The position numbers and the translations under genes are program-made. Source: a phage. From it: DNA of 39,767 bases. The DNA lies in sequence record PV935351.1. One strand, 5' to 3'. Every line of letters starts with the position of its first letter. The stretch's first letter is position 1. Positions 5,515 to 39,767 of the stretch are shown one piece after another. Under the pieces are notes generated by a model that was given only the letters and a program-made list of their open reading frames with translations, did not search any database and was not told the DNA's origin.

Positions 5515-5589
5515 CAGACCTACAGTTACTGGCCTTGTGGCTTGGAGCACTAGCAGTATTCACTTTAATCCAACGCAGAAGAGGTTAAC

Positions 5590-5612
5590 CCTAAACTATC
5601 ACTATAGGATTA
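5590..5612 (+). promoter_or_regulatory. phage RNAP promoter
   Basis: CTAAACTATCACTATAGGA, +1 G at 5607. Confidence 0.8.
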
Positions 5613-5662
5613 GACTCAAGGTCATGACTCAAAGTCGTGGCCTTCATGATTAACCCTAACTC
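5611..5662 (+). ncRNA. conserved structured RNA element, copy A (candidate RNase III site)
   Basis: TAGACTCAAGGTCAT, 11 variable nt, GTGGCCTTCATGATTAACCCTAACT; the same element recurs at 12952 and 36562. Confidence 0.55.
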
Positions 5663-7212: not shown

Positions 7213-7231
7213 CGTCTAGACCGTAGATAGA

Positions 7232-7254
7232 CCTAAACTATCACTATAGGACAA
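7232..7254 (+). promoter_or_regulatory. phage RNAP promoter
   Basis: CCTAAACTATCACTATAGGAC, +1 G at 7249. Confidence 0.8.
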
Positions 7255-7281
7255 CCATAACTTCGACCTAAGGAGGCCGAC

Positions 7282-7542
7282 ATGTTTAAGAACTTAATGT
7301 TCAACCGTTATACCAGTACCTTCCACCTGTCCAACAACCCGTTCGCTTGCATTAAGCGCAACGAGAAGCTGGACTACTTCGGGAAGGTCGTTAAGCTGTC
7401 ACCTACAGTCTACGCTCTGATTACTCAGGGTAAAGCTGAAGAGGCTCGCCAAAAACGTGAGACCAACGTACCTGTAGTCTACACCAAGTGGCCTCGCGTT
7501 CGTCTGTTTATTGAGTTCGTGAAGGAGGTGATCAATGGTTAA
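7282..7542 (+). CDS. hypothetical protein (gene 1.6 position)
   Basis: 86 aa; AAGGAGG RBS. Confidence 0.65.
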   Translation: MFKNLMFNRYTSTFHLSNNPFACIKRNEKLDYFGKVVKLSPTVYALITQGKAEEARQKRETNVPVVYTKWPRVRLFIEFVKEVING

Positions 7543-7975
7543 GGTGGGGGATACAGTTAAATATGTTGGACCAATTGGAGCCCACATGGGACGCTCCTGT
7601 GGCAAGGTGATAATGGTTAAGAATGAGCATGTGGCTGTTGTTAAGTGGCCCCATTCATCTGAACCACTCACTCACTCCATTAGTTCCTTAAGTATTACCA
7701 AGCAGGCGCAGTCCGAGCCGATAACCATAGGTCAGGAAGATAGCGTCCGTAAGCCATCTCACTATCAGGTCTTTGACGGTGTGGAATCCATTGAGATTAT
7801 CGCTCGGTCAATGACTGTCAGCGAGTTCCGTGGCTTCTGCATGGGTAACGTCCTTAAGTATCGACTCCGGGCTGGTAAGAAGTCCGAGCTGGCTACTATG
7901 GAGAAGGACCTAAACAAAGCAGCCTTCTACCAGGAGCTGTTCGACCTGCATAAAGGTAAGTGTTATGACGTCTAG
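7535..7975 (+). CDS. 1.7: gp1.7-like protein (nucleotide kinase family, C-terminal homology only)
   Basis: 146 aa; the C-terminal 80 aa (KPSHYQVFDGVESIEIIARSMTV...LKYRLRAGKKSELA...KCY) match recalled T7 gp1.7; the N-terminal 65 aa differ and lack the Cys-rich motifs. Confidence 0.75.
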   Translation: MVKVGDTVKYVGPIGAHMGRSCGKVIMVKNEHVAVVKWPHSSEPLTHSISSLSITKQAQSEPITIGQEDSVRKPSHYQVFDGVESIEIIARSMTVSEFRGFCMGNVLKYRLRAGKKSELATMEKDLNKAAFYQELFDLHKGKCYDV

Positions 7976-8387
7976 TGATTGCATTGACCATGACTACAAC
8001 TGCAAGAGCTACGCAAATGTGTATTCCAAAGCTCATGGTAGAAACTTTGGTCTTCACCGAATAGTTCTAGCGGAGAAGTTAGGAGTCGATGTGGCTGAAA
8101 TGAAGGGAGTAGCGATGCACTCTTGTGACAATAAGAGATGTGTCAATCCTGAACACTTACAGTTAGGGACCCAGAGTCAGAACGTACTGGATGCACACTC
8201 AAGAGGACTGGTAAACGTGGTGTCTGGAGAAAAGCACCCAATGATCAAGCTCACAGACGAGCAGATTGCATATGTTCTGGGTAGTACGCTAGGCGCGAGA
8301 GCGATTGGCAGAGAGCTGGGAGTTTCACATTCGTTAATAAGCAGGTTGAGAAATGGAAAAGCAAGAGCTTCCCAGCGAGTGGGCTGA
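7965..8387 (+). CDS. HNH homing endonuclease
   Basis: 140 aa; HNH core HSCDNKRCVNPEHLQLGTQSQN; C-terminal HTH-like segment; AT-richer with AGA/AGG codons. Confidence 0.8.
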   Translation: MTSSDCIDHDYNCKSYANVYSKAHGRNFGLHRIVLAEKLGVDVAEMKGVAMHSCDNKRCVNPEHLQLGTQSQNVLDAHSRGLVNVVSGEKHPMIKLTDEQIAYVLGSTLGARAIGRELGVSHSLISRLRNGKARASQRVG

Positions 8388-8460
8388 GAGAAAATTTGAG
8401 GAGACAGGTAACGTCGATTACCTTCATCTCTACAACCAATGGAAGGAGCGTGGTCTATGA
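8353..8460 (+). CDS. hypothetical small ORF (gene 1.8 position)
   Basis: 35 aa, overlaps the HNH gene end and the gene 2 start; no clear RBS. Confidence 0.25.
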
Positions 8461-8615
8461 CTGACGTAGAAAAGAAATACATCGTGGAGCTTGAGGGTCG
8501 CGTTCAGTCATTCGATGTTCCGGTGTACGCAAAGTCTCTTGAAGAGGCTACCCTGAAGTCCCAAGAGTATGAGGACGCGGGGTTTGTGGTCGGACGGATT
8601 CGTCCTGAGACCTAA
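8457..8615 (+). CDS. 2: gp2-like inhibitor of host RNA polymerase
   Basis: 52 aa [31 protein letters not shown]...[11 protein letters not shown]; resembles recalled T7 gp2; GGAAGGAG RBS. Confidence 0.75.
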
Positions 8616-8633
8616 ACTATCACTGTAGGACAG
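8611..8633 (+). promoter_or_regulatory. phage RNAP promoter (variant, G at -3)
   Basis: CCTAAACTATCACTGTAGGAC; overlaps the gene 2 stop; precedes the SSB gene. Confidence 0.6.
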
Positions 8634-8673
8634 ACGTCCAGTTAGTAACTTTAAAAATAGGAGATTTACACCG

Positions 8674-9372
8674 ATGGCTAAAGAGCAACTGAAGACTTTC
8701 ACCACTCCGGTAGCTGGTATCGTTGAGCCTTACGCATGGCTGAACAAAGCAGACACCAAGTTTAATGATCGCGGTGAGCATAAGGTTAACCTGACTTTCG
8801 ACCTGAGCAACCCGAAGGTCCGTAAGATGATTGATGTCTTACAGAAGATTCACGACGATGCGTATGCGAAAGCACTCGCAGACCACGAGAAGAACCCACC
8901 TCAGGTTCAGCGTGGCAAGAAGCCTATTGAACCACGAGAAGGCGACATGCCGTGGATTGAGAATGGTGACGGTACTGTTACCCTGAAGTTTAAATGCTTT
9001 GCGTCTTACCTGAAGGATGGTAAGTCAGAGCCTATCGTATTACGGTTCTACGACACCGATGCTAAGTTAATCCGTGACGTCCCGAATATTGGCGCTGGCT
9101 CAAAGCTGAAGGTCAAGTTTAAAGTCCTGCCGTTCAAGTGGAACGCTGCGACTGGTGCAAGCGTTAAGCTCCAGCTTGAGTCCTGCCTTCTGGTAGAACT
9201 GAAGGAATGGAAAGGTGATGGTTCTGGTGGAGATGGTGGCTGGGGTGATGATGAAGACCTAGGCACTGGCTACAAAGCGTCAACCGATGGTGACTTCGGT
9301 GACGATGACTTCGGTGACGATGGTTCCGAAGGCGGTGACGACTCCAACTCTGGTGGCGATTACGACTTCTAA
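8674..9372 (+). CDS. 2.5: single-stranded DNA-binding protein
   Basis: 232 aa; GKKP...EGDMPW and GASVKLQLES match recalled T7 gp2.5; acidic C-tail ending in Phe (GGDYDF). Confidence 0.95.
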   Translation: MAKEQLKTFTTPVAGIVEPYAWLNKADTKFNDRGEHKVNLTFDLSNPKVRKMIDVLQKIHDDAYAKALADHEKNPPQVQRGKKPIEPREGDMPWIENGDGTVTLKFKCFASYLKDGKSEPIVLRFYDTDAKLIRDVPNIGAGSKLKVKFKVLPFKWNAATGASVKLQLESCLLVELKEWKGDGSGGDGGWGDDEDLGTGYKASTDGDFGDDDFGDDGSEGGDDSNSGGDYDF

Positions 9373-9824
9373 TGGCCCAATGGTCTGCAAAACGGGGGCA
9401 CTCTGTGGGTGCCTACCGCTCTGGACTTGAAGCCAAGAACCAGCAGTGGCTGGAACAGAACGGCGTCAAAGCGGAGTACGAAAGCCATTATATCAACTAT
9501 GTGATTCCGGCTTCCGACCACAAGTACACACCAGATTTTATCCTTCCTAACGGTATTATCGTGGAGACCAAAGGTATCTTCGATAGTGATGACCGTAAGA
9601 AGCACCTTCTGGTACGAGAACAGCACCCAGAGTTAGACATTCGGTTCGTGTTCTCAAGTTCCCGCTCCAAGTTATACAAAGGGTCTCCGACCACGTATGG
9701 CGCATGGTGCGAAAAGAACGGCTATAAGTATGCCGACAAGTTTATCCCGGTTGAGTGGCTGAAAGAGGCGACTGTACGTCTTCCTTCCGGCATCCTCATC
9801 CCTAAGAAGAAAGGAGTTAAGTGA
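9372..9824 (+). CDS. 3: endonuclease I (Holliday junction resolvase)
   Basis: 150 aa; YVIPASDHKYTPDF...GIIVETKG...DDRKKHLLVREQHPELDIRFVFSSSRSKLYKGSPT matches recalled T7 gp3. Confidence 0.95.
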   Translation: MAQWSAKRGHSVGAYRSGLEAKNQQWLEQNGVKAEYESHYINYVIPASDHKYTPDFILPNGIIVETKGIFDSDDRKKHLLVREQHPELDIRFVFSSSRSKLYKGSPTTYGAWCEKNGYKYADKFIPVEWLKEATVRLPSGILIPKKKGVK

Positions 9825-10315
9825 TGACTCAGAAATATAGACTTAAAGTTAGCCGCTACGGGTGGCCTGAAGGTACTATCGTTACGAAATGTGCGAAAGA
9901 CCCGTACCCAACGCCATTATCGACTCTGGTAGAAACCTCCGAGCGTGGCACCTACAAGCACGGAGCAGAAGGGCATAACACGCAGCCTGATGGTATGTGG
10001 GGGGCATGGGTCTGTGATCATGAACTTGAGGAAATCAAGCCGGAAGAGAAACTCACTGGTGTACAGACCACTCAAGTCCTGCCAGCCTCAAGTGTCCCTC
10101 CTGTCACCGTTAAGCGTGAAGTCCTGACCATCGACAAGATTGGTGTAGGCCAGACGTTCATCGTCCACGGAAAGCCTGAAGAAGTTTATGTGAAGATTAG
10201 CAACTCACACGTCTTCAACCATAAGCGTCTCCAGATGCACACCACGGACGCACAACGCTTCACCCAGCACCTGAATCTAGTGGTCGTAGAAGTGGTGGTG
10301 TACAATGGTAAGTAA
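9824..10315 (+). CDS. hypothetical protein with no T7 counterpart at this position
   Basis: 163 aa from ATG 9824 (AAGGAG RBS; the track start at 9821 is a GTG); no motif recognised. Confidence 0.7.
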   Translation: MTQKYRLKVSRYGWPEGTIVTKCAKDPYPTPLSTLVETSERGTYKHGAEGHNTQPDGMWGAWVCDHELEEIKPEEKLTGVQTTQVLPASSVPPVTVKREVLTIDKIGVGQTFIVHGKPEEVYVKISNSHVFNHKRLQMHTTDAQRFTQHLNLVVVEVVVYNGK

Positions 10316-10763
10316 GGTACAGTTCAACCCACGGTCCCGTACTGACGCTATCTTCGTTCACTGTTCGGCTACCAAGCCAGATATGGACATCGGGGTAGAT
10401 ACCATCCGTATGTGGCACAAGCAGCAAGGCTGGCTGGACGTAGGCTACCACTTTATCATCAAGCGTGATGGCACTGTAGAAGAGGGTCGCCCGGTCAATG
10501 TCGTAGGGTCACACGTTAAGGATTGGAACTCCCGGTCCGTAGGAGTCTGCCTTGTAGGGGGAATTGACGCTAAGGGTCAGTTTGAAGCTAACTTCACTCC
10601 AGCCCAGATGAACTCCCTGCGCAACAAGCTGGCTGACCTGAAGTCCATGTATCCTCAGGCAGAAATCAAAGCACACCATGACGTAGCACCTAAGGCGTGT
10701 CCAAGTTTCGACTTGCAACGCTGGCTGTCTACTAATGAACTGGTCACTTCAGACCGTGGTTAG
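10305..10763 (+). CDS. 3.5: N-acetylmuramoyl-L-alanine amidase (T7 lysozyme)
   Basis: 152 aa; TDAIFVHCSATKP...WLDVGYHFIIKRDGTVEEGR...HHDVAPKACPSFDL...NELVTSDRG nearly identical to recalled T7 gp3.5. Confidence 0.97.
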   Translation: MVSKVQFNPRSRTDAIFVHCSATKPDMDIGVDTIRMWHKQQGWLDVGYHFIIKRDGTVEEGRPVNVVGSHVKDWNSRSVGVCLVGGIDAKGQFEANFTPAQMNSLRNKLADLKSMYPQAEIKAHHDVAPKACPSFDLQRWLSTNELVTSDRG

Positions 10764-10787
10764 TAAACTCTAAAGGAGAATAACTCG

Positions 10788-11003
10788 ATGATTAAACTTA
10801 TTGAATTTCTTGGTCGTCTGGTGGTGCGTGGTTATCGTCGTGCTGCGATACTGGAACGAAAGGTAGAAAAGAAGACTGCTGACAGTGCGGCTGATGCTGC
10901 TGCTCTGGCCGACAAGCTGACCATCGAGTCACTGGAAGCTGGCATGAAGGCTCGTCAGGCTGATACCAAAGCTGACCAATTGGCTCAGTTCTTCAAAGCC
11001 TAA
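10788..11003 (+). CDS. hypothetical protein
   Basis: 71 aa, hydrophobic N-terminus then Ala/Lys-rich helix; AAGGAGA RBS. Confidence 0.6.
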   Translation: MIKLIEFLGRLVVRGYRRAAILERKVEKKTADSAADAAALADKLTIESLEAGMKARQADTKADQLAQFFKA

Positions 11004-11021
11004 ACTATCACCTTAGGGATG
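10999..11021 (+). promoter_or_regulatory. degenerate phage-promoter-like sequence upstream of gene 4
   Basis: CTAAACTATCACCTTAGGGA; two changes at -4/-3 relative to the other promoters. Confidence 0.35.
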
Positions 11022-11041
11022 GGACCGCTAGTCCTGTCCCT
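11015..11041 (+). other. stable hairpin in the gene 4 leader
   Basis: AGGGATGGGA / TCCTGTCCCT 10-bp stem (two G-U pairs), 7-nt loop, followed by TTGTT. Confidence 0.5.
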
Positions 11042-11068
11042 TTGTTCGCATTTGTGATTAAGGAGTGA

Positions 11069-12948
<1,880 letters not shown>

Positions 12949-12951
12949 GTC

Positions 12952-12998
12952 TAGACTCAAGGTCATTCACATCGAGTGGCCTTTATGATTAGACTAAA
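12952..12998 (+). ncRNA. conserved structured RNA element, copy B (candidate RNase III site)
   Basis: TAGACTCAAGGTCAT, 9 variable nt, GTGGCCTTTATGATTAGACTAAAC. Confidence 0.55.
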
Positions 12999-13011
12999 CG
13001 GAGGATTAACC

Positions 13012-13413
13012 ATGTTTGATTGCATTGAGTGGACCGGGTGTCGAGATAGTTTCGGCTATGGTATGCGAAAGGTCAACGGGAAGGTCCGTAGACTACATCT
13101 GATAGCCTTCGAGGAGGCGAATGGTCCGATACCAGAGGGAATGGTCGTGAGGCACAAATGTGACAACCCTGCGTGCTACAATCCAGAACACTTGGAGCTG
13201 GGGACAAGGGCTGAGAACAATCACGATAGAGACGTTAGAGGTCGAACCGCTAAAGGCGTGCGACATGGAAGCTCTAAGCTTACACCTGAAATAGTACAAG
13301 AGGCCAAGGCTCTTTACGCAGTAGGTGGCTGGACTCACCGCTCATTAGGTAAGAAGTATGGAGTGGGTCACCGCACACTGGCTAGAGCAATTGGAGGAAA
13401 AACATGGACTTAA
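13012..13413 (+). CDS. HNH homing endonuclease
   Basis: 134 aa from ATG 13012 (GGAGG RBS); HKCDNPACYNPEHLELGTRAENNHD core; C-terminal HTH-like segment; AGA/AGG codons. Confidence 0.8.
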   Translation: MFDCIEWTGCRDSFGYGMRKVNGKVRRLHLIAFEEANGPIPEGMVVRHKCDNPACYNPEHLELGTRAENNHDRDVRGRTAKGVRHGSSKLTPEIVQEAKALYAVGGWTHRSLGKKYGVGHRTLARAIGGKTWT

Positions 13414-17157: not shown

Positions 17158-17209
17158 GTCTAACCGATAGTCATATCCTATCAATCCAACAGTCATCCAT
17201 AGGTGGAAC

Positions 17210-17232
17210 ACTAAACTATCACTATAGGGACT
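17210..17232 (+). promoter_or_regulatory. phage RNAP promoter
   Basis: CTAAACTATCACTATAGGGAC, +1 G at 17227; flanked by a 9-bp inverted repeat (17169-17177 / 17244-17252). Confidence 0.8.
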
Positions 17233-17293
17233 TTAGGACCTAAGATATGACTATAAGATAGACTTTAGTCTTAACTTAAAGAGGAGATTCAAG

Positions 17294-18466: not shown

Positions 18467-20035
18467 ATGGCTGAACGTGAAGGGTTCGCTGCTGAAGGAG
18501 CCAAAGCGGTCTATGACCGCCTGAAGAACGGTAGACAGCCATATGAGACACGCGCTCAGAATTGTGCTGCTGTCACTATCCCGTCACTGTTTCCTAAGGA
18601 GTCCGACAACTCGTCTACTGAGTACACCACTCCGTGGCAAGCTGTAGGTGCTCGCTGTTTGAACAACTTGGCTGCAAAGCTGATGTTGGCGTTATTCCCT
18701 CAGTCACCGTGGATGCGACTTACAGTCTCCGAATATGAGGCTAAGACCTTGAGTCAGGACTCAGAGGCTGCTGCTCGTGTTGACGAGGGGCTTGCTATGG
18801 TCGAGCGTGTGTTGATGGCCTACATGGAGACAAACAGTTTCCGTGTGCCATTGTTCGAAGCTCTGAAACAGCTTATAGTCTCCGGTAACTGTCTGCTCTA
18901 CATTCCAGAGCCTGAACAGGGAACCTACAGTCCCATGCGAATGTACCGCTTAGTGTCTTACGTTGTTCAACGTGATGCGTTCGGTAACATCTTGCAGATT
19001 GTGACTCTCGACAAGGTAGCGTTTAGTGCTCTACCGGAAGACGTGAAGTCTCAACTCAACGCAGACGACTATGAGCCTGACACCGAGCTGGAAGTGTATA
19101 CGCACATTTACCGTCAGGACGACGAATATCTACGCTACGAGGAAGTGGAAGGCATTGAGGTAGCAGGGACCGATGGTTCTTACCCACTGACTGCCTGTCC
19201 ATACATCCCGGTACGAATGGTTCGACTGGACGGTGAAGACTATGGTCGCTCTTATTGCGAGGAGTATCTGGGAGACCTGAACTCGCTGGAGACGATTACA
19301 GAAGCTATCACCAAAATGGCTAAGGTAGCCTCCAAGGTGGTGGGCCTCGTTAACCCGAACGGTATCACGCAACCTCGTCGTCTGAACAAGGCGGCTACAG
19401 GTGAGTTCGTGGCTGGTCGCGTTGAGGACATCAACTTCCTGCAACTGACGAAAGGTCAGGACTTTACGATTGCCAAGTCGGTGGCTGATGCTATCGAGCA
19501 ACGTTTAGGCTGGGCCTTCCTTCTTAATAGTGCTGTTCAGCGTAATGCCGAGCGAGTCACTGCTGAAGAGATTCGTTACGTTGCTGGTGAACTGGAGGCG
19601 ACCTTAGGTGGCGTGTACTCTGTACAGTCACAAGAGCTTCAGTTACCTATCGTCCGTGTGCTGATGAACCAACTTCAGTCTGCTGGCATGATTCCTGACC
19701 TTCCGAAAGAAGCGGTTGAGCCTACGGTATCCACTGGTCTGGAAGCGTTAGGTCGTGGTCAGGACTTGGAGAAGCTAACTCAGGCAGTCAACATGATGAC
19801 CGGGCTACAGCCTCTGCAACAGGACCCAGACATTAACTTGCCCACCCTTAAGCTGCGACTGCTGAATGCCTTAGGCATTGATACTGCTGGTCTTCTGCTG
19901 ACTCAGGACGAAAAGATGCAACGTATTGCTGAACAATCCGCTCAAGGAGCTGTGGTCAACGGTGCGTCTGCTGCTGGTGCTAATATGGGCGCTGCTGTAG
20001 GTCAGGGAGCTGGTGAGGACATGGCTCAAGCCTAA
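18467..20035 (+). CDS. 8: head-to-tail connector (portal) protein
   Basis: 522 aa; PYETRAQNCA, TPWQAVGAR, YRLVSYVVQRDAFGN, ACPYIPVRMVRLDGEDYGRSY match recalled T7 gp8. Confidence 0.97.
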   Translation: MAEREGFAAEGAKAVYDRLKNGRQPYETRAQNCAAVTIPSLFPKESDNSSTEYTTPWQAVGARCLNNLAAKLMLALFPQSPWMRLTVSEYEAKTLSQDSEAAARVDEGLAMVERVLMAYMETNSFRVPLFEALKQLIVSGNCLLYIPEPEQGTYSPMRMYRLVSYVVQRDAFGNILQIVTLDKVAFSALPEDVKSQLNADDYEPDTELEVYTHIYRQDDEYLRYEEVEGIEVAGTDGSYPLTACPYIPVRMVRLDGEDYGRSYCEEYLGDLNSLETITEAITKMAKVASKVVGLVNPNGITQPRRLNKAATGEFVAGRVEDINFLQLTKGQDFTIAKSVADAIEQRLGWAFLLNSAVQRNAERVTAEEIRYVAGELEATLGGVYSVQSQELQLPIVRVLMNQLQSAGMIPDLPKEAVEPTVSTGLEALGRGQDLEKLTQAVNMMTGLQPLQQDPDINLPTLKLRLLNALGIDTAGLLLTQDEKMQRIAEQSAQGAVVNGASAAGANMGAAVGQGAGEDMAQA

Positions 20036-20053
20036 ACTATCACTATAGGAACT
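20031..20053 (+). promoter_or_regulatory. phage RNAP promoter
   Basis: CCTAAACTATCACTATAGGAAC, +1 G at 20048; the transcript 5' end (ATAGGAAC) can pair with GTTCCTAT at 20097-20104. Confidence 0.8.
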
Positions 20054-20131
20054 TAGACAAGATTCGCAAAGCATTAGGCCGGGTGAGACTCCCGGTCGGT
20101 TCCTATCATCAACTTAAAGGAGAATGACTCA

Positions 20132-21016
20132 ATGTCTCAATCAGTTTATGCCGAGTTCGGCGTTAGCTCTAATGCAATCACTGGTTCCGTTGAGGACCTG
20201 AACGAACACCAGAAGTCTATGCTTGAACAGGACGTAGCTGTTCGTGATGGCGATGACGCTATTACCTTCAAGCAACTGGAAGCCGAAAACGAAGAGGCGA
20301 CCGAAGAAGACGAGAACGTCGAAGAGACTGAGGGTGCTGAAGACAACGAGTCCGATGACGAAGAGTCTGAGACCGATGGTGAGCAGCCTGAGTTCATCGA
20401 ACTAGGTGATGCACCGAAAGAGCTTACCGAAAGTGTCACCGCTCTGGATGAAAACGAAGCTGCATTTGACGACATGGTGTCTTCTGCTGTAGAAGCTGGC
20501 AAGGTCACTGCTGATGAAATTACCGCTATCAAGGCTGAATACGCCAAGGACGGTAAGCTGTCTGACGCATCCTACGCTAAGTTGCAGGAAGCAGGTTACA
20601 CCAAGCGTTTCGTAGATTCGTTTGTCCGTGGTCAGGAAGCTCTTGCTGAACAGTATGCTGCTGGTGTGGTTCGCTACGCTGGTGGTGCTGAACAGTTTAA
20701 TCGCATCCTGTCACACCTTGAGTCCAACGACCCGTCAACTCGTGAAGCACTGGAAGCTGCTATCGTTCGTAAGGACATTGCGACTACCAAAGCTCTGCTG
20801 AATCTGGCTGGCAAGACTCTGGGTAAAGCTGTGGGTGTTAAACCTCAGCGTACCATCACCACTCAGGCTAAACCTGTGGTCGCACCTAAGGCTCCTCAGA
20901 CCGAAGCATTCAGCTCCAAGGCTGACATGATTAAGGCTATGAGTGACCCGCGATACCTGCGTGACGCTAAGTACACGATGGAAGTTCGCGCTAAGGTAGC
21001 TGCCTCAAGCCTGTAG
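20132..21016 (+). CDS. 9: capsid assembly (scaffolding) protein
   Basis: 294 aa, highly acidic; FGV, VAVRDGDDAI, GYTKRFVDSFVRGQEAL, KAMSDPRY match recalled T7 gp9. Confidence 0.95.
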   Translation: MSQSVYAEFGVSSNAITGSVEDLNEHQKSMLEQDVAVRDGDDAITFKQLEAENEEATEEDENVEETEGAEDNESDDEESETDGEQPEFIELGDAPKELTESVTALDENEAAFDDMVSSAVEAGKVTADEITAIKAEYAKDGKLSDASYAKLQEAGYTKRFVDSFVRGQEALAEQYAAGVVRYAGGAEQFNRILSHLESNDPSTREALEAAIVRKDIATTKALLNLAGKTLGKAVGVKPQRTITTQAKPVVAPKAPQTEAFSSKADMIKAMSDPRYLRDAKYTMEVRAKVAASSL

Positions 21017-21017
21017 G

Positions 21018-21040
21018 ACTAAACTATCACTATAGGGAGA
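21018..21040 (+). promoter_or_regulatory. phage RNAP promoter for the major capsid gene (phi10-like)
   Basis: CTAAACTATCACTATAGGGAGACC; +1 to +8 GGGAGACC as in T7 phi10; leader stem GGGAGACC / GGTTCCCC; RBS AGGAGA...CATATG. Confidence 0.9.
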
Positions 21041-21142
21041 CCAAGAGAAAGACTCAAGGTTCCCCTATTACTTCAGTCCATACGGATTGGGCGTACAGTA
21101 AGTAATATACTTTATCTTTCAATTGAATAGGAGAATTATCAT

Positions 21143-25408: not shown

Positions 25409-25458
25409 AAGGGCCTATAGATTTACCTTAACTATCACTATAGGGACTATAGGCCCTT
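25409..25458 (+). other. 12-bp perfect inverted repeat enclosing the gene 13 promoter (candidate RNase III site)
   Basis: AAGGGCCTATAG (25409-25420) / CTATAGGCCCTT (25447-25458), 26-nt loop containing promoter positions -17 to +3. Confidence 0.6.
25426..25448 (+). promoter_or_regulatory. phage RNAP promoter
   Basis: CCTTAACTATCACTATAGGGAC, +1 G at 25443. Confidence 0.8.
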
Positions 25459-31800: not shown

Positions 31801-32706
31801 AGTAAGCGTAAGTTCGATGACCGCTGGCTGAAGACCGCTGGTATATCTGACGAGCAGTGGAATGGCATTAAGTCCCTAATCCGTGAGTCAGTGACTCGTG
31901 GTCCAGACGGGAAGTACACCATCAAGGATAAGAAGGCGTTCAGTCAGGACCCAAGGGCTATGGACCTATGGCGTATGGGTGATACCATCGCTGACGAAAC
32001 GTTACTACGTCCTCATAAGCTGTCCAACATGGACGCAAAGGCTTATGGTCCTATCGCTAAGACTGTCCTTCAGTTTAAGAACTTCGTCATCAAGTCCATC
32101 AATGGGCGAACCATGCGTACCTTCTATAACGCCACGAAGAACAACCGAGCGATTGACGCTGCACTATCGACCGTGATGTCTATGGGTCTGGCTGGTATCT
32201 ACTACATGGCTCAGGCGCACGTCAAGGCTTATGCTATGCAGGATGGTCGAGACCGTGACTACCTTAAGCAAGCTCTGGACCCGACGATGATTGGTTATGC
32301 GGCTCTGTCCCGTAGTTCACATCTGGGTGGACCACTTGGGGTAGCTAACATTCTGGGTGGCATCGCTGGGTATGAGGACACTAAGATGCTCCGTTCGTCT
32401 ATCCTACCTCGTTCGCCCACAGAGAAGCCTGAACGTGCCATCGCGTATGGTGCAGCTACAAGTGACCCTGTGATGAATGTTGTTGGTAACTTCTTGGAGC
32501 AGGTTCCAGCTTTCGGATATGCTGCTAACGTTGGTGCTTCGGCTTATAACTTGGCTGGCTACCTGAAGGCCGACACTCGGGTAAACGAGCGAGACTACAT
32601 GACCGGGATGTATAACACCTTCCGTGAACTGGTTCCGAACGACCCGATTACTCAGAAGTTGCTACTGGGAACGTTTGAGGAGCAAGGTATCCACATCAAG
32701 GACTAA
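28819..32706 (+). CDS. 16: internal virion protein D (ejection core) with a non-T7-type N-terminal domain
   Basis: 1295 aa; from about residue 200 collinear with recalled T7 gp16 (TWFGFG, VRSPTGMQSGASGK, RPEVKKRVDE, MPAYDRRVNGDIAIMG, LSRSS); the N-terminal 130 aa lack the T7 transglycosylase TESRF motif. Confidence 0.93.
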   Translation: MATRGIRNNNPGNIRVSKDQWEGMTGDDGAFVTFDSPESGVRALGKNLLSYGRQGYDSIEKIINRWAPPNENETKAYIDSVVAATGIPATQSLDLSNPDTLSSLAQAISFHETGSRYDPEVYQKGVARALNGISPKTPPVSANVFDALTEGLKAKPKVALGENLPTAAGLNIEGQAPEAPNESFGEMFYKSTGETMQEREDRSTWFGFGSATEAEVKNSMVGVAIRAGQTEDSLDVIGDVFNPTRWNNHKWSREELDQIRNAGVLPQYYGVITGGSPQNLTELINLALENQKLDQEKAKAGTGAQLAAGVIGAGVDPLTYVPIAGQIGKGGKLVNKMFTVAAQSGALAGVSEMARTSVAGGDAHVAEAILGGALFGGGMTAIADGLGRALGRNTNEFAGPATRLEARETARNVDGQDLSRLPIQEGEETFSYQGVKFADVPNEPGSVRLEDGSILIGENPLNPKTRQVFDEVIEPERAAAGVNLGGLTEIGLKLLRSENPEIRGVASDLVRSPTGMQSGASGKIGTTASDVFERLRAVDHRFYNDIDDAVTEALKDPYFQTAFWRDSGAFRQDIYQRVSMAIEDGSGNLKAELTPGELKVYDLLKNQFDAKREMMENPAMFGRPDAQSIFPGSRFKGTYVPHVYSKQMKELYTKELGSPEALQEAIKKSWLTSYASRPEVKKRVDEALLESDPTLTPEGLAAAVDKYANDKAYGISHTEQFERSSVMEENINGLVGLENNSFLEARNLFDSDMSIVLPNGQTFSVNNLREWDMDKIVPAYNRRVNGDIAIMAGTGKTTKDMKDLVETMMNKAGDDGKLKGEVSTLRDTLKILTGRARRDGADDAAFATVMRTMTDLSFFAKNAYMGVQNLTEIGGMLARGNVRAMLHGVPIFRDLAFRNKKVGASEIKDLHNVIFGKELDDSIRPSKQDVIDRLRSYSDLGRGTATALGTAKYYTGELAVRSPFTKVLNGTTNYLLDAGRQGFLSDIVEHSLTGSKRKFDDRWLKTAGISDEQWNGIKSLIRESVTRGPDGKYTIKDKKAFSQDPRAMDLWRMGDTIADETLLRPHKLSNMDAKAYGPIAKTVLQFKNFVIKSINGRTMRTFYNATKNNRAIDAALSTVMSMGLAGIYYMAQAHVKAYAMQDGRDRDYLKQALDPTMIGYAALSRSSHLGGPLGVANILGGIAGYEDTKMLRSSILPRSPTEKPERAIAYGAATSDPVMNVVGNFLEQVPAFGYAANVGASAYNLAGYLKADTRVNERDYMTGMYNTFRELVPNDPITQKLLLGTFEEQGIHIKD

Positions 32707-32724
32707 ACTATCACTATAGGAAAC
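32702..32724 (+). promoter_or_regulatory. phage RNAP promoter for the tail fibre gene
   Basis: CTAAACTATCACTATAGGAAAC, +1 G at 32719; overlaps the gene 16 stop. Confidence 0.8.
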
Positions 32725-32771
32725 TGGAGGCGCTACCATAGGTCTCCTTTTAATTCATAACAGGAGGCATA

Positions 32772-35700
32772 ATGTCCACGATTACACAATTCCCTTCAGG
32801 AAACACTCAGTACAGGATTGAGTTCGACTACCTAGCCAGAACGTTTGTGGTTGTTACGCTGGTGAATAGCTCTAACCCTACCATGAACCGTGTACTGGAA
32901 GTTGGTCGAGATTACCGATTCCTTAATCCAACGATGATTGAGATGTTGGTTGACCAATCAGGTTTCGACATCGTTCGTATTCACCGTCAGACTGGAACTG
33001 ACTTAGTGGTAGACTTCAGGAATGGCTCAGTGTTGACAGCTAGTGACCTGACCAATTCAGAGCTTCAGGCTATCCATATTGCAGAAGAAGGTCGAGACCA
33101 AACGGTTGACTTAGCGAAGGAATATGCCGATGCTGCTAGTAGCTCTGCTGGCAACGCTAAGGATAGCGAGGACGAAGCACGACGAATCGCTGAGAGTATC
33201 AGGGAAGCTGGTCTAATTGGCTATATTACCCGTCGCTCCTTCGAGAAAGGCTACAACGTTACAACATGGAGCGAGGTCCTGCTATGGGAAGAGGATGGTG
33301 ATTATTACCGCTGGGATGGTACGCTTCCAAAGAACGTTCCTGCTGGTTCAACTCCTGAAACTTCCGGTGGGATTGGATTAGGTGCGTGGGTTAGTGTTGG
33401 TGATGCTGCTTTAAGAAGTCAGATTTCAAACCCGGAGGGGGCAATACTCTACCCTGAATTACATAGAGCACGCTGGCTTGATGAAAAAGATGTGCGTGGT
33501 TGGGGTGCTAAAGGGGATGGTGTCACTGATGATACAGCAGCGTTAACGAGCGCATTAAGCGCCACACCTGTTGGACAAAAGGTTAATGGCAATGGGAAGA
33601 CATATAAGGTCACATCACTTCCTGACATTAGTCGCTTCATCAACACTCGTTTCGTTTATGAGCGCATTCCCGGACAACCTCTTTATTATGCCTCTGAAGA
33701 ATTTGTTCAGGGTGAGCTATTCAAAATAACTGACACCCCTTATTACAATGCGTGGCCTCAGGATAAAGCGTTCGTATATGAGAATGTGATATATGCACCT
33801 TACATGGGTAGCGATCGTCATGGTGTTAGTCGTCTGCATGTATCATGGGTTAAGTCTGGTGATGACGGTCAAACATGGTCTACTCCAGAGTGGTTAACTG
33901 ATCTGCATCCAGATTACCCTACAGTGAACTATCATTGTATGAGTATGGGTGTATGTCGCAACCGTCTGTTTGCCATGATTGAAACACGTACTTTAGCCAA
34001 GAACGCATTAACCAATTGTGCATTGTGGGATCGCCCCATGTCTCGTAGCCTGCATCTTACTGGTGGTATCACTAAAGCTGCAAATCAGCAATATGCAACA
34101 ATACATGTACCAGACCACGGACTATTCGTTGGTGATTTTGTTAACTTCTCTAATTCTGCGGTAACAGGTGTCTCCGGTGACATGACTGTTGCAACCGTAA
34201 TAGATAAGGACAACTTCACGGTTCTTACACCCAACCAGCAGACTTCAGATTTGAATAACGCTGGAAAGAATTGGCACATGGGTACTTCTTTCCATAAGTC
34301 GCCATGGCGTAAGACAGACCTTGGTCTAATCCCTCGTGTCACAGAGGTGCATAGCTTTGCTACTATTGATAACAATGGCTTTGTTATGGGTTATCATCAA
34401 GGCGATGTAGCTCCATGCGAAGTTGGACTTTTCTATTTCCCTGACGCTTTCAATAGCCCATCTAGTTATGTTCGTCGTCAGATACCATCTGAGTATGAAC
34501 CAGATGCGTCAGAGCCGTGCATCAAGTACTATGACGGTGTATTATACCTTATCACTCGTGGCACTCGTGGGGATAGACTGGGTAGCTCTTTGCATCGTAG
34601 TAGAGACATAGGTCAGACTTGGGAGTCGCTGAGATTTCCACATAATGTTCATCATACTACATTACCTTTTGCTAAAGTAGGGGATGACCTTATTATGTTT
34701 GGTTCAGAACGTGCAGAAAATGAATGGGAAGAAGGTGCGCAAGATGATCGTTACAAGGCATCTTATCCTCGCACCTTCTATGCACGCTTGAATGTAAACA
34801 ATTGGAATGCAGACGATATTGAATGGGTTAACATCACTGACCAGATTTATCAGGGCGGAATAGTTAACTCAGGTGTAGGCGTTGGTTCGGTAGTTGTGAA
34901 GGATAGTTACATCTACTACATGTTTGGTGGAGAGGACCATTTTAACCCATGGTCATATGGAGATAACTCAGCGAAGGATCCATTCAAAGCAGATGGTCAT
35001 CCCTCAGATTTGTATTGCTACAAAATGAAGATTGGCCCAGACAATCGTGTTTCAAGGGATTTCAGGTATGGTGCTGTACCTAACAGAGCTGTTCCCGTGT
35101 TTTTTGATACGAATGGGATTCGCACTGTTCCTGCGCCAATTGAATTTACAGGGGATTTAGGTTTAGGTCATGTGACCATTAGAGCCAGCACCAGTAGTAA
35201 CATTCGCTCTGAAGTTTTAATGGAAGGTGAATATGGGTTTATCGGAAAATCTATACCGACTGATAACCCGGCAGGGCAGCGCACTATATTTTGCGGAGGC
35301 GACAGTACCAGTTCTTCTTCTGGTGCACAGATTACGCTTTATGGTGCAAATAACACCGACTCAAAGCGAATAGTTTACAATGGTGCTGAGCATCTGTTCC
35401 AGACTGCTGACGTTAAGCCTTATAACGATAACGTCACTGCGCTTGGTGGGCCTAGCAACCGTTTCACCACTGCATACCTCGGAAGCAACCCTATTGTTAC
35501 TTCTAACGGGGAGAGGAAAACAGAGCCGGTAGTTTTTGATGATGCTTTCCTTGATGCCTGGGGTGATGTTCACTACATCATGTACCAGTGGTTGGATGCT
35601 GTTCAACTGAAAGGCAATGATGCTCGTATTCACTTCGGTGTTATTGCTCAGCAAATTCGTGATGTATTCATTGCGCATGGTCTGATGGACGAAAACAGTA

Positions 35701-35966
35701 CGAATTGTCGTTATGCTGTTCTGTGCTATGACAAGTATCCACGGATGACCGATACGGTATTTTCGCACAATGAAATCATTGAACACACTGACGAGGAGGG
35801 TAATGTCACTACTACGGAAGAACCTGTATACACCGAGGTGGTTATTCACGAAGAGGGTGAGGAGTGGGGTGTTCGGCCTGACGGAATTTTCTTTGCTGAA
35901 GCCGCTTATCAGAGAAGAAAACTGGAAAGAATCGAAGCCAGACTTTCTGCTCTTGAACAGAAGTAA
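32772..35966 (+). CDS. 17: tailspike endosialidase (endo-N-acetylneuraminidase) with gp17-like N-terminal adaptor and C-terminal chaperone domain
   Basis: 1064 aa; N-terminus MSTITQFPSGNTQYRIEFDYLARTF... is gp17-like; two Asp-boxes SGDDGQTW and SRDIGQTW; matches the endoNF precursor of phage K1F as I recall it; AT-richer from about 33420. Confidence 0.92.
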   Translation: MSTITQFPSGNTQYRIEFDYLARTFVVVTLVNSSNPTMNRVLEVGRDYRFLNPTMIEMLVDQSGFDIVRIHRQTGTDLVVDFRNGSVLTASDLTNSELQAIHIAEEGRDQTVDLAKEYADAASSSAGNAKDSEDEARRIAESIREAGLIGYITRRSFEKGYNVTTWSEVLLWEEDGDYYRWDGTLPKNVPAGSTPETSGGIGLGAWVSVGDAALRSQISNPEGAILYPELHRARWLDEKDVRGWGAKGDGVTDDTAALTSALSATPVGQKVNGNGKTYKVTSLPDISRFINTRFVYERIPGQPLYYASEEFVQGELFKITDTPYYNAWPQDKAFVYENVIYAPYMGSDRHGVSRLHVSWVKSGDDGQTWSTPEWLTDLHPDYPTVNYHCMSMGVCRNRLFAMIETRTLAKNALTNCALWDRPMSRSLHLTGGITKAANQQYATIHVPDHGLFVGDFVNFSNSAVTGVSGDMTVATVIDKDNFTVLTPNQQTSDLNNAGKNWHMGTSFHKSPWRKTDLGLIPRVTEVHSFATIDNNGFVMGYHQGDVAPCEVGLFYFPDAFNSPSSYVRRQIPSEYEPDASEPCIKYYDGVLYLITRGTRGDRLGSSLHRSRDIGQTWESLRFPHNVHHTTLPFAKVGDDLIMFGSERAENEWEEGAQDDRYKASYPRTFYARLNVNNWNADDIEWVNITDQIYQGGIVNSGVGVGSVVVKDSYIYYMFGGEDHFNPWSYGDNSAKDPFKADGHPSDLYCYKMKIGPDNRVSRDFRYGAVPNRAVPVFFDTNGIRTVPAPIEFTGDLGLGHVTIRASTSSNIRSEVLMEGEYGFIGKSIPTDNPAGQRTIFCGGDSTSSSSGAQITLYGANNTDSKRIVYNGAEHLFQTADVKPYNDNVTALGGPSNRFTTAYLGSNPIVTSNGERKTEPVVFDDAFLDAWGDVHYIMYQWLDAVQLKGNDARIHFGVIAQQIRDVFIAHGLMDENSTNCRYAVLCYDKYPRMTDTVFSHNEIIEHTDEEGNVTTTEEPVYTEVVIHEEGEEWGVRPDGIFFAEAAYQRRKLERIEARLSALEQK

Positions 35967-36297: not shown

Positions 36298-36557
36298 CGC
36301 AGATGGACTTAGAGAAGTTCCTCTTAATGCTAGATACTGAACGTGCTCGACTCATGCTGCAAGACCTGCGGGATGACACTAAGCGTTCACCTCAGCTCTA
36401 CAACGCCATTGAGAAGCTGCTTGCTCGTCACAACTTTGTGTTAAGCAAGGTGTCTGTTGACGAGAAGACGCTCGCTGATATGGAGGCCCTTAACGCAGAG
36501 TACGATAAGGTGCTCTCCGCTACGGAAGATAATGACACCGGGTATGGTGTTCAATAA
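36294..36557 (+). CDS. 18: terminase small subunit
   Basis: 87 aa; size and position of T7 gp18. Confidence 0.85.
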   Translation: MTQMDLEKFLLMLDTERARLMLQDLRDDTKRSPQLYNAIEKLLARHNFVLSKVSVDEKTLADMEALNAEYDKVLSATEDNDTGYGVQ

Positions 36558-36561
36558 GTGT

Positions 36562-36611
36562 TAGACTCAAGGTCATTACTATATGTAGTGGCCTTTATGG
36601 TTAACACTAAC
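36562..36611 (+). ncRNA. conserved structured RNA element, copy C (candidate RNase III site)
   Basis: TAGACTCAAGGTCAT, 11 variable nt, GTGGCCTTTATGGTTAACACTAACT; sits where T7 has the R18.5 site. Confidence 0.6.
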
Positions 36612-36658
36612 TAGTGGAGGCGACTCTACGTGAAATCTGATAAACCGGGAGGGCAACT

Positions 36659-38926: not shown

Positions 38927-38962
38927 CTACCAGTCTAACCTACTGTTTTATAAGGAGTTTGG

Positions 38963-38985
38963 ACTTAACTATCACTATAGGGAAG
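38963..38985 (+). promoter_or_regulatory. phage RNAP promoter near the right end (phiOR-like)
   Basis: CTTAACTATCACTATAGGGAAG, +1 G at 38980. Confidence 0.8.
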
Positions 38986-39165
38986 ACCCCCGGTTACTTA
39001 TAGTATTACTGTAGTGAATATACATATGCAGACTTTATGCAAGACCTTAGGAGGCAGACTCCGAGTTCTTACCTAAGGCTTGCACCGATGGAAGGAGGGT
39101 GATATTAATCATAATCCCTCCAATACAGATAGTCACCGACCATAGATACAGGAGGTATGTAGCAT

Positions 39166-39563: not shown

Positions 39564-39767
39564 TCTCACAGTTCAAGAACCTCAAGTCTCCCCCCCTAGG
39601 CCCTCTTTCAGTCCAGACCAAAGGCCCTACCCATTACTGCTCCTTGCAGTCACAGCCAGTCTATCATAAGGTTGGACCGATGGTCAAGACGTTAGGTCGA
39701 CGATAGGTCTAGGCTATGGCTTAGGGAAGGACGATAGGTAGAGGCTATAGGTCTTCTTTGAGTCTCT
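39564..39767. repeat. right direct terminal repeat (DTR)
   Basis: Identical to bases 1-204. Confidence 0.95.

Follow-up and report, generated by a model that had tools for sequence, protein, structure and literature searches.

A Kayfunavirus gene that joins a near-invariant core domain to exchangeable N-terminal modules

Gene 3.2 of the K1F-like phages encodes a small protein in which a near-invariant C-terminal core domain follows one of several alternative N-terminal modules, and the DNA for these modules behaves as a cassette that is exchanged between otherwise closely similar genomes. The copy described here lies at positions 9824-10315 on the plus strand of a 39,767-nt stretch of phage DNA, hereafter the window, and by homology and position it is the gene 3.2 of Kayfunavirus, which is already catalogued and uncharacterised. 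We propose, with a probability of about 40%, that the product is a non-enzymatic binding adaptor which would pair a constant docking domain with a swappable targeting domain.

Exact direct terminal repeats of 204 bp occupy positions 1-204 and 39564-39767 and show that the window holds an entire linear genome of T7-like type, which belongs to the K1F-like group (Kayfunavirus). Its relatives are classified as Kayfunavirus, and the closest genome overall is that of Escherichia phage phiYIO1-1, which shows 95.3% identity across 92% of the first 25 kb. The 1064-aa tailspike encoded at 32772-35966 is a full K1F-type endosialidase with a T7 tail-fibre N-domain, an End_N_terminal domain, a beta-propeller, an End_tail_spike domain and an S74 chaperone, which makes K1-capsulated E. 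coli the probable host. Transcription units are defined by about 11-12 copies of the K1F-type phage RNA polymerase promoter consensus CTAAACTATCACTATAGG, with members of this repeat family at 2507-2536, 5586-5615, 7228-7257, 8607-8636, 10993-11017, 17206-17235, 20027-20056, 21014-21043, 25422-25451, 32698-32727 and 38959-38988. A separate set of three related repeats of 45-52 nt (5610-5661, 12946-12991 and 36561-36612; TTAGACTCAAGGTCAT...GTGGCCTT(C/T)ATG(A/G)TTAAC) holds an inverted repeat and is intergenic, following gene 1, preceding the HNH gene at 12985 and following position 36557; these elements resemble sites of RNase III processing or terminators of the hairpin type. Genes for HNH_3 homing endonucleases are inserted between core genes at 7965-8387 and 12985-13413 (140 and 142 aa). 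The frame at 7535-7975 encodes a 146-aa protein with a C-terminal DUF3310 domain, like members of the gp1.7 nucleotide kinase family of T7, and over its N-terminal ~70 residues (MVKVGDTVKYVG...VIMVKNEHVAVVKW) the sequence alternates in the manner of a further small beta-barrel.

The initial annotation had described a 163-aa open reading frame between the genes for endonuclease I and the amidase, preceded by an AAGGAG ribosome binding site and overlap-coupled to both neighbours, and each of these points is upheld at 9824-10315 on the plus strand. The frame is uninterrupted from the ATG at 9824-9826 to the TAA at 10313-10315 and encodes 163 aa plus stop. A mechanical listing opens it at the GTG at 9821; the start is placed at ATG 9824 because every homologue begins with MTQKY or MSKKF. 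The Shine-Dalgarno sequence, read directly from the DNA as AAAGGAG at 9810-9816 (+), stands 7 nt before this codon. Upstream, gene 3 (9372-9824, +; Pfam Phage_endo_I, E 2.4e-81) ends in a TGA at 9822-9824 whose final A is also the first base of the gene 3.2 start (TGATG). Downstream, the ATG of gene 3.5, the amidase/lysozyme gene (10305-10763, +; Pfam Amidase_2, E 1.3e-16), falls 11 nt within the 3' end of gene 3.2, and the resulting overlap at 10305-10315 (+) reads as a site of translational coupling. The frame is kept in more than 200 phage genomes and is under purifying selection, and by these comparisons gene 3.2 is a real gene. The claim that T7 has no counterpart also held, because in T7 (NC_001604) nucleotide 10706 is both the last of gene 3 and the first of gene 3.5.

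The phage promoter CTAAACTATCACTGTAGG at 8607-8636 (+), a member of the K1F-type repeat family upstream of gene 2.5, probably drives a transcription unit comprising genes 2.5-3-3.2-3.5-3.7. The next phage promoter, at 10993-11017 (+) and upstream of gene 4, belongs to repeat family D3, and both this element (CCTTAGG) and the one at 8607 (CTGTAGG) depart from the K1F-type consensus. No further phage promoter copy was found between 8607-8636 and 10993, and the interval 8400-11200 contained no sigma-70-like promoter, intrinsic terminator or Rfam element. Gene 3.2 is accordingly placed inside this class II unit, as nothing that would start or end a transcript was detected between phi2.5 and phi4, and its genomic context would assign it to class II (middle) expression. 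The arrangement suggests that gene 3.2 is co-transcribed and translationally coupled with the genes for the ssDNA-binding protein, endonuclease I and the amidase.

Membership of the family is well defined. The full product (residues 1-163) aligns with positions 1-157 of the 157 in PHROG 16385, a family of unknown function, at E 5.2e-93. It is 83% identical to gp3.2 of EcoDS1 (EU734172) and 75% identical to both gp3.2 of K1F (AM084414) and the 3.01 product of Citrobacter phage CR44b, which are annotated merely as gp3.2 or hypothetical protein, and the closest database protein is a metagenomic one (P0001, 93% identical). These three homologues lie at the same locus between genes 3 and 3.5, a syntenic position that recurs across the window and its relatives, and have the same organisation of module A, linker and core within a length class of 156-163 aa; the window protein differs from them mainly at hypervariable loop positions of the N-module and in a longer linker variant with a 7-aa KLTGVQT segment. 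The family was found in 221 phage records by tblastn. As the gene 3-3.5 region was matched by 232 records (megablast) and only the 11 most distant of these, at 60-80% identity, lie beyond the 221, gene 3.2 appears effectively universal in Kayfunavirus. In Providencia phage PSTCR2 the locus is occupied by a diverged copy. Of the phages proposed for comparison, T7 and T3 are without gene 3.2 and K1F carries an annotated gp3.2.

Searches for a function in the libraries were uniformly empty, which agrees with the initial statement that the product has no recognisable motif. The product matched no family in Pfam (E up to 10), NCBIfam or PADLOC and nothing in the PDB, either by sequence or with profiles of both domains; the Pfam models for SH3, SH3b, KOW, Tudor and FeoA gave no significant match. 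Nor did any Pfam HNH (HNH/His-Me finger) model match gene 3.2, in contrast to the HNH_3 matches at 7965-8387 and 12985-13413. An exhaustive phmmer search of 1.84 billion cluster representatives recovered only 15 clusters, and as all of them belong to the same phage family, gp3.2 shows no distant annotated relative. A homologue search with the 67-aa C-domain returned only seven short proteins, and one seeded with the two members that diverge most recovered the diversity of the family. No homologue of known routine function emerged from these libraries, and no function for the family is recorded in the libraries or the literature searched, which covered Kayfunavirus anti-defence, accessory-gene screens and a gp3.2 peptide motif. 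In the literature searched, gp3.2 appears only as a table entry, in which the short-form orthologue of an SH phage is listed with a pI of 9.7 (PMC4925675).

The organisation of the protein was established from reading frames reconstructed at 26 loci together with about 200 database proteins. The C-terminal core domain (aa 97-163; 10112-10312, +) is near-invariant, with the consensus ...VLTIDKIGVGQTFIVHGKPxEVYVKISNSHVFNHKxLQMHTTxxxRFxxHLNLVVVELVVYNGK, and its motifs VYVKISNSHVFN, QMHTT and RF, which mark the short gp3.2 core (PHROG 15211), are invariant in the alignments; at 47% identity the PSTCR2 homologue still retains SNSHVFN, QMHTT and RF. The 74-aa family PHROG 15211 aligns with residues 94-163 and no others (E 3.6e-39), and of the 221 records only 56 span 80% or more of the protein, the remaining 165 matching the C-terminal part alone. 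The core occurs either alone, as a protein of 74-76 aa that is the commonest form, or behind the Pro/Ser-rich linker ...QVLPASSVPPVTV (aa 73-96; 10040-10111, +), which is predicted to be disordered (pLDDT 42-51). The short proteins of 74-75 aa from Cronobacter phage Dev2, the Citrobacter SH phages and most Kayfunavirus are homologous to aa 94-163 at 73-79% identity and share the locus and the gene 3.5 overlap, but they are without N-terminal module and linker, and the window protein amounts to this core plus a 5' extension of 290 bp. One such bare 74-aa form is carried by IMGVR_UViG_2974585782_000001, which is on this account a different phage.

At least six N-terminal modules (A to F) precede the linker, each fused in frame to the core. 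The window carries module A (aa 1-72; 9824-10039, +), with the pattern GWPxGTIVTKC ... LVE ... YKHGxxGxNTQPDGMWGAWV. The linker keeps a conserved 3' half whichever of modules A-D precedes it, and an indel of 7 aa within the linker separates A-type proteins, the window having the longer variant. Comparisons with hhalign revealed no detectable relationship among modules A-E or between any of these and the core, and the idea that the N-modules are diverged duplicates of the core was rejected on this result; the alternative modules also matched no known family in Pfam or the PHROGs. Tandem forms (A+B and D+B) were found as well. Tandem modules (A+B, D+B, and an unknown module with a B-like one) precede the same core in P0120/P0121 (226-227 aa), P0162 (222 aa) and P0141 (227 aa), and the modules are therefore stackable. 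The type of module shows no obvious correlation with host genus.

At the DNA level, the boundaries of the N-terminal part are sharp. A blastn comparison with Vec13, which has module B, gives 96.5% identity as far as position 9829 and 94% identity from 10066, with no similarity between these points; relative to PRF-SP1 (module C) the alignment breaks at 9830 and 10074, and relative to loci with the bare form similarity resumes at 10123. A-type phages, on the other hand, are ~90-93% identical across the whole interval, and the overall closest genome, that of phiYIO1-1, has module C in a backbone that is near-identical elsewhere. Because homology to phages with other modules breaks so sharply at 9830-10065 (+) while the flanks match at 94-96%, the 5' ~240 bp of gene 3.2 is, on these alignments, a recombinationally exchangeable cassette set between the end of gene 3 and the linker and core. 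The initial view of the frame as an insertion is thus only partly sustained: the gene as a whole is no novelty, being the genus-wide gene 3.2 of K1F, EcoDS1 and the 221 records, and it is the N-terminal ~240 bp that behaves as inserted and exchangeable. The gene 3-3.5 interval is more generally an insertion hot spot. In some relatives (PH1061 and PRF-SP1) HNH homing endonuclease genes stand directly beside gene 3.2, at 1745-2116 of locus L002 and 1757-2206 of locus L003. In PSTCR2 (locus L028, 1746-2778) the interval contains three frames: one encodes a 152-aa diverged homologue of gp3.2 whose N-module is of yet another type, one an acidic protein of 117 aa, and one a 79-aa protein that resembles gp3.7. 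The interval is therefore a hot spot for accessory genes beyond Kayfunavirus as well.

Structure prediction gave a confident model for the N-terminal module and a moderately confident one for the C-domain. In an AlphaFold2 run with 121 sequences, residues 1-72 form a five-stranded barrel with pLDDT 89-96, and the topology of this small barrel superposes on SH3 domains. The C-domain was left unmodelled in the full-length run (pLDDT 37-57); a second run with a more diverse alignment produced a small beta-barrel with a short helix at pLDDT 73 (76-88 in the core). Fold matches for this moderately confident model are weak, and the best of them include the metal-associated SH3-like domains of FeoA and DtxR. 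A Foldseek search of viral predicted structures (BFVD) yielded no match below E 0.09. Both domains thus look, as modelled, like generic small binding barrels, and the fold specifies no partner. SH3-like barrels are mostly binding modules; the fold is very common and its likeness to gp3.2 carries little functional information, and the known examples (eukaryotic SH3, KOW, Tudor, KorB-C, FeoA/DtxR) have no sequence-level relationship to gp3.2.

Constraint is distributed very unevenly along the protein. Pairwise Nei-Gojobori estimates from six A-type genes gave dN/dS values of 0.28 for the N-module, 0.29 for the linker and 0.12 for the core, and parsimony counts over 24 A-type coding sequences gave 0.09 for the core, 0.54 for the N-module overall and 0.20 for its 53 scaffold positions. 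About 19 loop positions of the N-module (9-12, 16, 24, 28, 30-33, 39, 43, 49, 51 and 64-67) are hypervariable: across 114 proteins whose identity is otherwise 70-93%, a single position can hold as many as 17 residue types. The pooled dN/dS of these 19 positions in the same 24 sequences is 1.35, a value biased upward because the positions were picked for their variability, and the best single-site p-values (0.03-0.07, uncorrected, at positions 9, 11 and 64) do not survive multiple-test correction. Relaxed constraint on the loops explains the pooled value equally well for the same reasons; the variability is suggestive at best, and we do not claim diversifying selection. The localised hypervariability also disposes of the Cys/His pair that had been singled out in WVCDHELEE, since positions 64 and 66 belong to the hypervariable set, with 17 residue types at C64 and 14 at H66 among the 114 homologues. 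A zinc- or metal-binding Cys-His motif in the N-module was rejected on these grounds, and the conserved Cys and His residues of the module are only the single C23 and H46, with no CxxC or HxxH pattern.

We infer a binding action and a division of labour between the domains from the fusion of module and core through an in-frame linker in all forms, the conserved core set against a swapped and hypervariable N-terminal part, the lack of catalytic signatures and the class II position. Under the adaptor model, gp3.2 would consist of two beta-barrels joined by a flexible Pro/Ser linker and without a recognisable catalytic motif. The invariant C-domain would dock on a conserved partner, which could be a component of phage replication, recombination or the lysozyme-RNAP system, a conserved host machine, or nucleic acid, and the tethered N-module would add affinity for a second, fast-changing partner, probably encoded by the host. 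Binding of this second partner would tune host takeover or evade strain-specific immunity. The gene is a plausible candidate for a host-interaction protein, which the initial annotation had raised for insertions in this region, and module swapping together with the hypervariable loops is consistent with that role. Several observations count against the adaptor model: the invariant polar motifs of the core (His, Ser, Thr and Arg) could equally mark an active or metal-binding site, the module type does not obviously follow host genus, the C-domain model is moderate with weak fold matches, and the loop dN/dS of 1.35 is inflated by site choice and fits relaxed constraint equally.

A more specific version of the adaptor model, which we consider unlikely, would make gp3.2 a plug-and-play scaffold for counter-defence or host takeover, in which the constant C-barrel, as effector or docking unit, is retargeted by at least six unrelated and exchangeable N-barrels with fast-diversifying loops to strain-specific host proteins such as immune sensors. 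If this were true, a swap of the 240-bp cassette would change which hosts the phage overcomes. A comparison can be made with the small T7 proteins of class I/II that serve host takeover or anti-defence, such as gp0.3 Ocr, gp2, gp5.5, gp5.7 and gp5.9. Like these, gp3.2 is small, non-essential-looking, lineage-restricted, placed among early or middle genes and likely to act by binding, but it is homologous to none of them and the window has its own homologue of the DNA mimic Ocr at 795-1304. To our knowledge none of these T7 proteins has a constant core with swappable modules. The Ocr homologue has 169 aa and is ~50 residues longer than the matched Pfam ocr domain, which covers residues 7-96 and leaves the rest as a C-terminal extension.

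Among the alternatives, the one that survives best is a phage-internal accessory factor, to which we give a limited but serious chance: the C-domain would perform a Kayfunavirus-specific housekeeping task in DNA metabolism or lysozyme/RNAP regulation, for example by modulating endonuclease I, gp2.5 or gp3.5, to which gene 3.2 is translationally coupled, and the N-modules would be dispensable decorations. Such a task would fit a core that is present in essentially every Kayfunavirus record matching the locus (221/232, the other 11 being only 60-80% identical) and is under very strong purifying selection, as well as a gene that lies among the class II DNA-metabolism genes and overlaps both neighbours. 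Most relatives, moreover, manage with the bare 74-aa form, and the short form is basic, the pI of 9.7 for the SH-phage orthologue (PMC4925675) being compatible with nucleic-acid binding. This reading has to contend with T7, T3 and other Studiervirinae, which lack gene 3.2, so that the gene is not needed for the common replication scheme. It also sits poorly with the N-modules themselves, which are argued to matter because they are always in frame, have scaffold positions under purifying selection (dN/dS 0.20) and are exchanged between near-identical genomes.

That gp3.2 is instead a small enzyme or metal-binding protein, with SNSH...QMHTT...RF forming a site for catalysis or metal binding that a dimer might share, and the N-modules providing targeting, seems to us improbable. 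The invariant residues are indeed polar (Ser, Asn, His, Gln, Thr and Arg) and conserved as far as PSTCR2, and FeoA and DtxR domains are among the best fold matches of the C-domain; against this, ~67 residues would be very small for an enzyme, no catalytic family is matched by sequence, and barrels of this type more commonly bind than catalyse. We give slightly less credence still to the possibility that the N-modules are selfish or hitch-hiking cassettes, spread by homing-endonuclease-promoted recombination and persisting without benefit to the phage. The HNH genes adjoining gene 3.2 in PH1061 and PRF-SP1, the two HNH genes elsewhere in the window and the sharp cassette boundaries are what such a process would leave behind, but in the window no HNH gene is adjacent to gene 3.2, the N-module has no nuclease motif, its scaffold residues are under purifying selection, and fusion through the conserved linker is kept in all forms. 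A spurious frame, or a non-coding element misread as a gene, can be dismissed given the frame conservation in more than 200 genomes, dN/dS well below 1, the strong ribosome binding site, the confident N-domain fold prediction and zero Rfam hits.

Gene 3.2 itself was known as a standard and uncharacterised gene family of K1F-like phages. As far as we can tell from the libraries searched, the architecture of a constant core with exchangeable modules, the sharp limits of the cassette, the SH3-like fold predicted for the N-module and the hypervariability of its loops are new, and together they make gene 3.2 a sensible candidate for a host-specific function. K1F-like phages find use in therapy, and are engineered for it, against pathogenic E. 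coli, K1-capsulated strains among them, and we know of no function for several of their genus-specific middle genes. Gene 3.2 probably matters to the phage, because it is conserved across the genus, and module exchange between genomes that are ~95% identical is typical of genes that set strain-level success after adsorption. If the module sets intracellular host range or counters defence, it would be a compact and engineerable determinant, and the family would provide, ready-made for comparison, at least six alternative modules on a single constant scaffold; if it does not, gene 3.2 would be an ordinary orphan accessory gene of a T7-like phage.
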